A stretch of 64,000 bases of DNA. Source: a phage. This document shows positions 40,994 through 42,711 of this stretch, piece by piece. Under the pieces are notes generated by a model, which ran no database searches, was not told where the DNA came from, and saw only the letters and a list, made by a program, of their open reading frames with translations. The position numbers and the translations under genes were made by a program. Position 1 is the stretch's first letter. Each line of letters opens with the position of its first letter. Location of the stretch: sequence record PX930852.1; one strand, 5' to 3'.

Positions 40994-41072
40994 TGGTACT
41001 CCATATCGGATTCGAACCGATACATAACACAGATTTTAAGTCTGGCCTCTCTGCCAATTGGAGTAATGGAGC
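40994..41072 (-). tRNA. tRNA with Leu anticodon TAA in type-I scaffold (atypical)
   Basis: T-arm atcgg/attcgaa/ccgat; anticodon loop ttttaag; total about 75 nt with 7-nt variable loop, no long variable arm. Confidence 0.5.
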
Positions 41073-41074
41073 AT

Positions 41075-41150
41075 TGGCGGGGGATGTTGGAATTGAACCA
41101 ACTTCTTCGATTTCAAAGACCGAGGTTTTAACCTTGTAAACTAATCCCCT
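41075..41150 (-). tRNA. tRNA-Gln (anticodon TTG)
   Basis: T-arm gttgg/aattgaa/ccaac; anticodon loop ttcaaag; D-arm gttt..aaac. Confidence 0.65.
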
Positions 41151-41158
41151 TTAAATCT

Positions 41159-41716
41159 TTACTTTCTTAGTGGATGAATAAAGAATGCCAACATAACTCT
41201 TTCCCTTGAGAATGCTCTTTCTTCTGGGACAACGCTTTTTAGTTTCCATCCAATATAAATTCTCCAGTAAAATTGTTTACCAAAGATTTTAATTGATGGG
41301 ATAAAAGCGAATAATCCCCAAGCATTCCTGTTCCACATTAGGAGATAACCAGTCTGATTATCTTCAGGGTTAGAACTTACGTTGATATTACCTTTCCACT
41401 TAGTAACATCTTTTACATCTCTTCCTAACACATGGTAAGAGAAGTTATAAGCTTTGTTTCTCCAGAGCCATCCAACTCTTTGCATGTAGACACCTAGTTT
41501 ACCAATCCATCTAATATTAGCCCATCTTTTAACGTGACCTTCATCACCATCAATTGGGTTGTCATAGGTCTCCATCCATCTGAATCCAAAAGGTAGATGT
41601 CCTTTCTTCTCACTGTAGAATGGAACTACGAAAGGTGCTAAGATAACTGCTAGTATTGCTGCAAGTGGTTCTAGCAAAGCTAAGAAAATCCATGAAGCAT
41701 ATTTTAAGTATCTCAT
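41159..41716 (-). CDS. putative membrane protein (185 aa)
   Basis: hydrophobic N-terminus; Trp-rich; embedded between tRNA clusters. Confidence 0.45.
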   Translation of the reverse strand: MRYLKYASWIFLALLEPLAAILAVILAPFVVPFYSEKKGHLPFGFRWMETYDNPIDGDEGHVKRWANIRWIGKLGVYMQRVGWLWRNKAYNFSYHVLGRDVKDVTKWKGNINVSSNPEDNQTGYLLMWNRNAWGLFAFIPSIKIFGKQFYWRIYIGWKLKSVVPEERAFSRERVMLAFFIHPLRK

Positions 41717-41955
41717 TGTCTAACCCTCGTAAGGAGGTAAGCATTATTACTTGTTTCTGAGCTTTCTGGTAACATTGTCTCAAAATTGACACTTTTAAGT
41801 TGTCTTCCACAAAAGCAATGACCAATAAATCTTTCTACTTTTATTGGGTCGCATTCCCATCCGACTTTTAAGAAAATGTGGGTATCTATAGTGGGAACCC
41901 TTACAAACTCAATACTATTGGGATTTTCATGTTCAACGACGATTAATGTTTGCAT
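41713..41955 (-). CDS. hypothetical protein (80 aa)
   Basis: coupled to 41159..41716. Confidence 0.35.
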   Translation of the reverse strand: MQTLIVVEHENPNSIEFVRVPTIDTHIFLKVGWECDPIKVERFIGHCFCGRQLKSVNFETMLPESSETSNNAYLLTRVRQ

Positions 41956-41973
41956 AAATTCCTCTTGCTTATC

Positions 41974-42049
41974 TGGCGCAGGATAAGGGATTCGAACCCC
42001 TATTAACAGTTTCGTAGACTGTTGCTCTATCCATTTGAACTAATCCTGC
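41974..42049 (-). tRNA. tRNA-Arg (anticodon ACG)
   Basis: T-loop attcgaa; anticodon arm acagt-ttcgtag-actgt; perfect acceptor gcaggat/atcctgc. Confidence 0.75.
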
Positions 42050-42054
42050 AAAAT

Positions 42055-42132
42055 TGGTGTTCCAAGACGGATTCGAACCGTCACTAATACAAGGTTTGAG
42101 CTTGCATCCTCTGCCAATTGGGATACTGGAAC
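42055..42132 (-). tRNA. tRNA with Leu anticodon CAA in type-I scaffold (atypical)
   Basis: T-arm gacgg/attcgaa/ccgtc; anticodon loop gtttgag; 74 nt, short variable loop; D-loop shared with 40994..41072. Confidence 0.5.
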
Positions 42133-42133
42133 A

Positions 42134-42208
42134 TGGTACTCACTAAAGGACTTGAACCTTTTTCTTCATCTTGTAAGGGTGGTGTTTTACCATATAAACT
42201 AAGCGAGT
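42134..42208 (-). tRNA. tRNA-Val (anticodon TAC)
   Basis: T-arm aaagg/acttgaa/ccttt; anticodon loop ttgtaag; anticodon stem weak (two mismatches). Confidence 0.5.
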
Positions 42209-42213
42209 GTGAA

Positions 42214-42300
42214 AGAGGTCTGAAGTTGTGCCGCTAACTCAACTCCGTGGAATTTGTTACGGTCTTCAGTTGACTCAAAGCGGTCTTTCACTTGACCTCT
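42214..42300 (-). ncRNA. tRNA-sized structured element lacking canonical T-loop (candidate ncRNA or degenerate tRNA)
   Basis: 87-nt slot between adjacent tRNAs; perfect 7-bp terminal inverted repeat agaggtc/gacctct; internal hairpins; no TTCGAA-type T-loop. Confidence 0.3.
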
Positions 42301-42304
42301 GAAT

Positions 42305-42380
42305 TGGTGCTCCCACAAGGATTCGAACCCTGATAAGTTGCTTACAAGGCAACCGTAATAGCCAATTATACGATAGGAGC
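42305..42380 (-). tRNA. tRNA-Thr (anticodon TGT)
   Basis: T-arm caagg/attcgaa/ccctg; anticodon arm gttgc-ttacaag-gcaac. Confidence 0.75.
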
Positions 42381-42387
42381 ATTAATT

Positions 42388-42462
42388 TGGAGCATCCAGA
42401 GGGAATCGAACCCTCAACCTCAGTTTGGAAGACTGTAATTTTCCCGTTTAAACTATGGATGC
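42388..42462 (-). tRNA. tRNA-Gly (anticodon TCC)
   Basis: T-arm gaggg/aatcgaa/ccctc; anticodon loop ttggaag; acceptor gcatcca/tggatgc. Confidence 0.7.
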
Positions 42463-42468
42463 ACTAAT

Positions 42469-42544
42469 TGGTGGAGTCACTGAGAATTGAACTCAGTTCC
42501 CAAGTTTGCAAAACTCGAATTTTAACCATATAAACTATGACCCC
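42469..42544 (-). tRNA. tRNA-Ala (anticodon TGC)
   Basis: T-arm ctgag/aattgaa/ctcag; anticodon loop ttgcaaa. Confidence 0.7.
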
Positions 42545-42550
42545 ATTTTT

Positions 42551-42626
42551 TGGTACAGGTGGAGGGAATTGAACCCATCGTCTTACTGATTAAGAGTCAG
42601 CCGCATAACCATTTTGCTACACCTGC
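42551..42626 (-). tRNA. tRNA-Lys (anticodon CTT)
   Basis: T-loop aattgaa; anticodon arm actga-ttaagag-tcagc. Confidence 0.65.
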
Positions 42627-42633
42627 ATTAATT

Positions 42634-42711
42634 TGGTAGGAGACAAGGGATTCGAACCCTCAAACACCAACTTCTAAGGATGGTAGGTTTACCAATTACC
42701 GTCAATCTCCC
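42634..42711 (-). tRNA. tRNA with Leu anticodon TAG in type-I scaffold (atypical)
   Basis: T-arm aaggg/attcgaa/ccctc; anticodon arm ccaac-ttctaag-gatgg; 74 nt; 5-nt variable loop. Confidence 0.5.

Follow-up and report, generated by a model that had tools for sequence, protein, structure and literature searches.

We examined a 64,000-nucleotide (nt) stretch of phage DNA (sequence record PX930852.1, hereafter the window) and found that it carries three transfer RNA (tRNA) genes with leucine anticodons, UAA, CAA and UAG, all of which possess the short variable loop of a type I tRNA in place of the long variable arm of type II tRNA-Leu. The genes exist as called, their cloverleaf is backed by covariation, their leucine identity nucleotides are in place and they belong to a wide family. 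We favor the view, at a probability of roughly 75%, that these are three genuine type I tRNA-Leu genes whose products are most likely leucylated by the host (E. coli or Salmonella) leucyl-tRNA synthetase (LeuRS). Judged from sequence, both this leucylation and a use of the charged tRNAs in translation are likely. The genes and their principal elements are as follows.

40994..41072, minus strand: tRNA-Leu(UAA), 79 nt including the encoded CCA and 76 nt without it (ARAGORN and Rfam RF00005)
41036..41038, minus strand: three positions inside the tRNA-Leu(UAA) gene 40994..41072
41022..41028, minus strand: variable region GUUAUGU of tRNA-Leu(UAA), 7 nt (positional parse)
42055..42132, minus strand: tRNA-Leu(CAA), 78 nt including CCA and 75 nt without it (ARAGORN and Rfam RF00005)
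42096..42098, minus strand: anticodon CAA of tRNA-Leu(CAA) (ARAGORN drawing and parse)
42083..42088, minus strand: variable region AUUAGU of tRNA-Leu(CAA), 6 nt (positional parse)
42634..42711, minus strand: tRNA-Leu(UAG), 78 nt including CCA and 75 nt without it (ARAGORN and Rfam RF00005)
42674..42676, minus strand: anticodon UAG of tRNA-Leu(UAG) (ARAGORN drawing and parse)
42662..42666, minus strand: variable loop UGUUU of tRNA-Leu(UAG), 5 nt (positional parse)

ARAGORN placed the three genes on the minus strand at exactly the coordinates proposed by an initial annotation made from the letters alone, and the plus-strand anticodon loops quoted there (ttttaag, gtttgag and ttctaag) are correct. 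ARAGORN, Rfam and our positional parse likewise agree with its view that leucine anticodons are combined with a missing long variable arm, and its estimate of 5-7 nt for the variable loops corresponds to 7, 6 and 5 nt in the parse. Its gene length of 74-75 nt falls short of the actual 79, 78 and 78 nt with CCA (76, 75 and 75 nt without). The software check that it had proposed, with ARAGORN and covariance models, called all three genes and revealed no hidden long arm. Rfam RF00005 scores were 47.5, 44.0 and 40.0 bits for the UAA, CAA and UAG genes, respectively (E-values 1e-8 to 2e-6), compared to a gathering score of 29 bits, placing all three within the tRNA family. Type II tRNAs are defined by a variable arm of at least 10 nt with a hairpin, which none of the three genes has. 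Instead, as expected of type I tRNA-Leu, each has a leucine anticodon together with a variable loop that is about 5 nt long and contains nucleotide 48.

The positional parse defined the body of each tRNA. The three anticodons conform to the leucine pattern (NAG or YAA), and the discriminator is A73 in every case. tRNA-Leu(UAA) has G1.U72, U8, A9 and a C27xU43 mismatch; its D arm consists of a 3-base-pair (bp) stem (CUC/GAG), C13.A22 and the loop A14 A15 U16 U17 G18 G19 C20 A20a, while its 7-nt variable region ends in U48 and, in the Rfam alignment, carries 4 inserted nt with respect to the class I consensus. tRNA-Leu(CAA) has G1-C72, U8, A9, the anticodon loop CUCAAAC, a 3-bp D stem (UCC/GGA), C13.A22 and a D loop identical to that of tRNA-Leu(UAA). 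Its 6-nt variable region likewise ends in U48, and reads ACUAGU in phages KhF1 and VpaE1 versus AUUAGU in the window. tRNA-Leu(UAG) has G1.U72, U8, G9, a U30xU40 mismatch and U48, with loop nucleotides as in the other two tRNAs. Its D arm spans 18 nt compared to the usual 17, and the register of the D stem is ambiguous: in the ARAGORN fold the acceptor and D stems are separated by three nucleotides, and in the Rfam alignment the acceptor is displaced by one. We favored the ARAGORN ends of this gene because they include the encoded CCA.

These features coincide with what E. coli LeuRS is reported to recognize. Its reported identity set consists of A73, U8-A14, A15-U48, G18G19 and A20a; the enzyme is said to need neither the anticodon nor the long arm, and to charge a minimal tRNA-Leu without the arm (PMC9976931). 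The tertiary elements U8-A14, A15-U48, G18G19 and A20a, together with a 3-bp D stem, occur in tRNA-Leu(UAA) and tRNA-Leu(CAA) exactly as in type II tRNA-Leu; tRNA-Leu(UAG) contains U8, A14, A15, U48, G18G19 and A20a, with the ambiguous D-stem register described above. Identity elements of other systems, such as G3.U70, are absent from the three tRNAs.

Covariation was examined in an alignment (MAFFT) of 50 distinct viral type I tRNA-Leu. A cloverleaf with a 3-bp D stem was paired in 96.6% of the cells of this alignment, compared to 38-46% in slid controls. The covariation score was 0.99 versus ~0.17 for the slid controls, and double changes occurred at 19 of the 20 pairs, so that the four helices of a tRNA cloverleaf are supported by compensatory change. 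The alignment shifts the two extra variable nucleotides of the window tRNA-Leu(UAA) into the T stem, where one pair is lost, and the result is unaffected. Positions T8, A15, G18, G19, A20a, A35, U48, the T-loop core and A73 are invariant in all 50 copies. Allelic variation is of the same kind: in the VpaE1 allele of tRNA-Leu(UAG), which is 89.7% identical, the entire anticodon stem has been swapped (CCAUC/GUUGG to UCUCG/CGAGA, five compensatory pairs), and the allele of phage Wc4 carries a compensatory change at 4:69. The U30xU40 mismatch is kept in the window and in phages Wc4, OSYSP and SalP219, while the VpaE1 stem is perfectly paired.

We measured how common such tRNAs are in viruses by a pattern scan of IMG/VR followed by ARAGORN, a biased sample from which proportions are rough. 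Among the matches listed, viral tRNA-Leu were bimodal in length, with 51 of 93 short (variable region of 5-6 nt) and 42 of 93 long (at least 9 nt). The less biased subset of loci that were found via a non-Leu tRNA gave 18 short and 37 long among 55 (again among the matches listed), and all 54 of the viral tRNA-Ser listed had a variable arm of at least 14 nt. The T5-like phage OSYSP (MF402939.1) has only two tRNA-Leu, both of type I. Phages Wc4, SalP219 and X1 each carry one type I tRNA-Leu beside one of type II. Bacterial genomes were scanned with a type-I-Leu pattern at one genome per GTDB species, yielding at least 120 loci. All but one of the matching genes (at least 124) were tRNA-Leu, the other being called tRNA-SeC, and the anticodons were UAA (at least 84), UAG (at least 17), CAA (at least 13), CAG (at least 5) and GAG (at least 4). 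Most of the bacterial type I tRNA-Leu among the matches listed are solitary chromosomal genes of Actinomycetota, including Mycobacterium, Nocardia, Gordonia, Rhodococcus, Arthrobacter, Bifidobacterium and Rothia; further copies belong to tRNA arrays found in cyanobacteria, Planctomycetota, Acidobacteria and other phyla. We had considered the short tRNA-Leu as a phage-specific invention, and rejected this idea in view of the chromosomal copies.

A type I tRNA-Leu(CAA) has been described in Streptomyces coelicolor by Fan et al. (2019, NAR; PMC6614811), whose study, the one biochemical work on a bacterial type I tRNA-Leu, calls such tRNAs rare. Our scan shows that bacterial type I tRNA-Leu are spread much wider than this published case. 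The premise of the initial annotation, which took bacterial tRNA-Leu and those known from phages to be type II throughout, is thus contradicted by the viral contigs, OSYSP, the Actinomycetota and S. coelicolor itself (PMC6614811). Our literature search found no paper describing short-arm or type I tRNA-Leu in phages.

The window is a Felixounavirus. Its tRNA region is 94-98% identical to genomes of this group, Felix-O1-like myoviruses whose hosts are E. coli, Salmonella, Shigella and Citrobacter, and the three genes are already labelled tRNA-Leu in the GenBank records of KhF1, VpaE1 and Felix O1 (AF320576). Most of 264 phage records carry tRNA-Leu(UAA) in 100% identical form. Homologues of tRNA-Leu(UAG) are present in 355 phage records, including Demerecviridae at ~84% identity as well as Pectobacterium Ounavirinae, Vequintavirinae and a Xanthomonas jumbo phage. 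Labels are not always correct: some records give tRNA-Leu(UAG) as tRNA-OTHER or pseudo, and the VpaE1 RefSeq record (NC_027337.1, 29046-29122) labels the tRNA-Leu(UAA) gene 'tRNA-Leu, TTG anticodon'. The short variable loop probably lies behind such slips.

The three genes had been proposed to be paralogues. This holds in part: tRNA-Leu(UAA) and tRNA-Leu(CAA) are 74% identical, but tRNA-Leu(UAG) is only 57-62% identical to either of them and 82% identical to the tRNA-Leu(UAG) of OSYSP. We therefore rejected paralogy for the UAG gene, which is nearer to genes of T5-like phages than to its own neighbours, and sequence comparison assigns it to a different lineage from the UAA and CAA genes. The D-loop motif AAUUGG, on which the proposal relied, is indeed present in all three, but it is the general D loop of tRNA-Leu of both classes, occurs in viral tRNAs for Thr, Lys, Asn and others as well, and is no proof of paralogy. 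Two type I subfamilies can be distinguished. One is actinobacterial-like, with CCAAUUGGCAGAG and a variable loop NNAGU, and includes the window UAA and CAA genes; the other is T5-like, with GGAAUUGGYAUAC and a variable loop RUUUU, and includes the window UAG gene.

Phage tRNAs are usually assigned a role in codon compensation. Leucine codons in 63 long open reading frames (ORFs) of the window were distributed as UUA 28.7%, CUU 27.7%, UUG 13.2%, CUG 13.1%, CUA 11.8% and CUC 5.5%, while CUG makes up about half of the leucine codons in E. coli and is read by the main host tRNA-Leu. Since UUA, CUU and CUA are enriched relative to the host, the three anticodons cover codons that the phage over-uses, consistent with a supply role. 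The annotation of the complete VpaE1 genome, a close relative, lists no aminoacyl-tRNA synthetase, and charging would therefore fall to the LeuRS of the host. In the mechanism that we propose, the E. coli or Salmonella enzyme would charge the three phage tRNAs with leucine, the charged UAA and CAA tRNAs would decode UUA/UUG, and the charged UAG tRNA would decode CUA/CUN. The phage is AT-rich and relies on these codons much more heavily than its host, and it would gain a supply of matching tRNAs. As reported in PMC13596443, which cites Nyerges 2023, an anticodon-swapped tRNA-Leu from OSYSP (MF402939.1) decodes TCG as leucine in E. coli, and this result bears on type I tRNA-Leu because both tRNA-Leu of OSYSP are of that type.

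Several observations weigh against this mechanism. The OSYSP evidence is second-hand and concerns the T5-like subfamily, to which the UAG gene alone of the three window genes belongs. E. coli LeuRS failed to charge the S. coelicolor type I tRNA-Leu(CAA) in vitro, and the enzyme is described as charging type II tRNA-Leu only (PMC6614811); the window UAA and CAA genes share a subfamily with the actinobacterial type I tRNA-Leu (A9, C13.A22 and CCAAUUGGCAGAG). In addition, Rfam scored the three genes below every other short-variable-loop tRNA of their cluster, although these scores are clearly significant, and folding of single sequences returned the cloverleaf as the minimum-energy structure for only one of the three, with z-scores of -0.3 to -1.8. 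Single-sequence folding is uninformative on AT-rich tRNAs, and we relied instead on covariance-model scores and covariation. With respect to charging, the Streptomyces variable loop is A44 C45 A46 G47 C48, five nucleotides including nucleotide 48 being the minimum variable loop according to Fan et al. (PMC6614811). The presence of A15 and U48 in all 50 viral copies, compared to C48 in Streptomyces, provides a plausible reason for a difference in acceptance by LeuRS, and charging of the window UAA and CAA tRNAs by an enterobacterial LeuRS appears likely despite their actinobacterial-like body.

We likewise questioned whether loss of the arm might itself be adaptive, hiding phage Leu-tRNAs that can still be charged from a nuclease that recognizes the long arm or body of host type II tRNA-Leu, either a host defence or a phage-induced host-shutoff activity. 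This proposal would add to leucylation by host LeuRS and is compatible with it. Phages with many different hosts frequently carry type I tRNA-Leu, whereas the arm of tRNA-Ser is never lost, and phage tRNAs have been reported to evade tRNA-targeting defences (PMC10264068, PMC11555353); viral tRNA-Leu are argued in PMC13596443 to be more nuclease-resistant than cellular tRNAs. Relatives of the window encode a PseT-like polynucleotide kinase of the tRNA-repair type. T4 uses an enzyme of the PseT kind in repairing nuclease-cut tRNA, and T-even infection is reported to cut a host tRNA-Leu (Yudelevich 1971). The VpaE1 enzyme (L249 4186-4881) is a PseT-like polynucleotide 5'-kinase/3'-phosphatase, and no RNA ligase is annotated in that phage. 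Nevertheless, the contrast between serine and leucine is explained by synthetase constraints alone: tRNA-Ser keeps its arm and tRNA-Leu may lose it because seryl-tRNA synthetase needs the arm and LeuRS does not. Moreover, Wc4, SalP219 and X1 retain a type II beside a type I tRNA-Leu, type I tRNA-Leu are also ordinary chromosomal genes in Actinomycetota, and no nuclease that reads the leucine variable arm was identified in this analysis. We consequently regard adaptive loss of the arm as unlikely. The same holds for the fuller version, in which a type I body would hide the tRNAs from nucleases while A15-U48, A14 and A73 would keep them chargeable by an enterobacterial LeuRS that otherwise rejects type I, a combination that we consider doubtful. 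If arm loss were adaptive, phages would possess, for a single amino acid, a second and orthogonal-looking architecture.

The remaining alternatives deny the tRNAs a leucine-supplying function. The initial annotation suggested that they might be charged by a non-cognate synthetase or act as decoys, and neither role finds support, given that the E. coli leucine identity set is kept, the anticodons match over-used leucine codons and leucine is inserted in E. coli by a related phage tRNA-Leu of the short form (as reported in PMC13596443). Uncharged tRNAs that serve as decoys, or as sponges that soak up anticodon nucleases or other factors binding tRNA, would fit the rejection of one type I tRNA-Leu by E. 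coli LeuRS in vitro and the low Rfam scores within the cluster. Such tRNAs would hardly be expected to retain A73, CCA, the T arm and all LeuRS elements, covarying as in working tRNAs, or anticodons that fit the leucine codons preferred by the phage; by the same account, a related phage tRNA-Leu of type I works in translation in E. coli, and ARAGORN found no further phage tRNA-Leu in the cluster that could do the decoding. A decoy role is thus very improbable. Charging by a synthetase other than LeuRS, with UUR/CUN codons partly recoded, is less probable still: only the missing long arm speaks for it, while the tRNAs have the D arm of tRNA-Leu, A73 in 50 of 50 viral copies, no other identity element (no G3.U70) and anticodons that are not cognate for any anticodon-reading synthetase, and a phage with a normal frequency of leucine codons would not survive the recoding of all of them. 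Finally, the weak folding z-scores and the GenBank records that give the Leu(UAG) homologue as tRNA-OTHER or pseudo raised the question of false positives or decaying pseudogenes. Two independent detectors concur on the genes, which are conserved across hundreds of genomes with compensatory changes, and this covariation effectively refutes decay; we consider the chance of such an artifact negligible.

The window genes can be compared with five known systems. The S. coelicolor type I tRNA-Leu(CAA) resembles the phage tRNAs in its 5-nt variable loop and U8-A14 and in coexisting in one cytoplasm with type II tRNA-Leu, and the window UAA and CAA tRNAs have the actinobacterial type of body (A9, C13.A22, CCAAUUGGCAGAG). 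It differs in having C48 where the phage copies have U48 with A15, and the variable regions of the window UAA and CAA tRNAs are 6-7 nt; furthermore, its actinobacterial LeuRS has a special leucine-specific domain, whereas the phage tRNAs would depend on an enterobacterial LeuRS. The T5-like tRNA-Leu(UAG) and tRNA-Leu(UAA) (OSYSP, MF402939.1; tRNAL1 in Salmonella phage 5, AJ604531) are type I and 77 nt long with CCA. They share A73, the 3-bp D stem and the variable loop RUUUU, and the window tRNA-Leu(UAG) is 82-84% identical to them with U30xU40 in common; it differs by one additional nucleotide in the D arm, while the window UAA and CAA genes belong to the other subfamily.

Type II tRNA-Leu (E. 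coli; Wc4, SalP219 and X1) have the same anticodons, A73, U8, U48 and D-arm layout (N10-12, N13, A14 A15 U16 U17 G18 G19 Y20 A20a). In contrast to the window tRNAs, with 5-7 nt and no hairpin, they carry a variable arm of 12-20 nt with a hairpin, and type II and type I tRNA-Leu differ mainly at N9 (usually G versus A) and 13:22 (usually G.A versus C.A). Animal mitochondrial tRNA-Leu are also type I, with A73 and A14 as identity elements (PMC9976931), but have degenerate bodies and a dedicated mitochondrial LeuRS, and are unrelated in sequence to the phage genes. Minimalist E. coli tRNA-Leu without variable and anticodon arms (Larkin et al. 2002, as relayed in PMC9976931) are engineered molecules and not natural genes; by this relayed account, E. 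coli LeuRS charges them if A73 and the tertiary contacts of the D loop with the T loop are kept (PMC9976931).

Taken together, the window genes are known, annotated and conserved, are phage members of a little-noticed type I kind of tRNA-Leu, and are ordinary for this window. The wider pattern is moderately interesting, since a coliphage possesses only type I leucine tRNAs while the LeuRS of its host is said to reject type I. In textbooks and recent reviews, all non-mitochondrial tRNA-Leu continue to be placed in type II, and yet type I provides the sole leucine tRNAs of a common coliphage group and of T5-like phages, and a large share of the phage tRNA-Leu sampled. If host LeuRS does charge them, the features that enable an arm-less substrate would be defined, A15-U48 versus C48 being the obvious candidate. 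Such phage tRNAs already underlie swapped-code strains for biocontainment and are thus of use in tRNA engineering. The findings also have value for annotation, as several records give these genes as tRNA-OTHER or pseudo.

The three genes are part of a larger cluster that contains one further unusual gene.

39799..45025, minus strand: tRNA cluster in one orientation, 25 ARAGORN tRNA genes and 1 Rfam-only tRNA-like gene
43300..43378, minus strand: tRNA-Arg(UCU)-like gene with encoded CCA, Rfam 31.7 bits, missed by ARAGORN

The acceptor stem, anticodon arm and T arm of the tRNA-Arg(UCU)-like gene are normal. Only 4 nt stand at the place of the D arm, however, and 23 nt separate the anticodon and T arms, a layout that reads like a tRNA-Arg with a permuted D arm. 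KhF1, VpaE1 and Wc4 carry a canonical tRNA-Arg(UCU) at the same locus. Phage records with the rearranged form number 263 and come from widely differing groups (Felixounavirus, Sugarlandvirus, phi92-like phages, jumbo phages, Straboviridae and others), and the gene is almost never annotated. There are 46 distinct full-length copies overall, of which 45 were aligned. A 3-bp helix formed by positions 11-13 with 40-42, enclosing the anticodon arm, is paired in all 45, with compensatory double changes at 2 of the 3 pairs, and is followed by an invariant D-loop-like strand, UAAYUGGAGUAU. The rearranged form and a canonical tRNA-Arg(UCU) occur together in only 2 of 72 loci. AGA is the commonest arginine codon of the window (41.9%). 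This gene is possibly more unusual than the short-arm leucine genes.

The cluster obeys the bacterial rule for its other type II tRNAs: two tRNA-Ser (93 and 90 nt) and a tRNA-Tyr (88 nt) retain long arms. All of its ARAGORN genes encode a complete CCA except tRNA-Ser(UGA) (42968-43057), which ends in CC. The second tRNA-Met(CAU) (44696-44772, minus strand) has an unpaired U1xC72 atop the acceptor stem and U38 in the anticodon loop; it is absent among the Rfam hits at the gathering score, a similar gene is found in OSYSP, and it may be an initiator-type tRNA. The neighbouring ORFs (DUF7217, DUF7338 and DUF2828/DUF7788) yielded no function as a synthetase or in tRNA modification. The last of these encodes a 471-amino-acid protein at the cluster border (45190-46605, minus strand) with DUF2828 and DUF7788 domains that matches phrog_850, 'RNA-binding protein', and its position beside 26 tRNA genes suggests a link with the handling of tRNA or small RNA.

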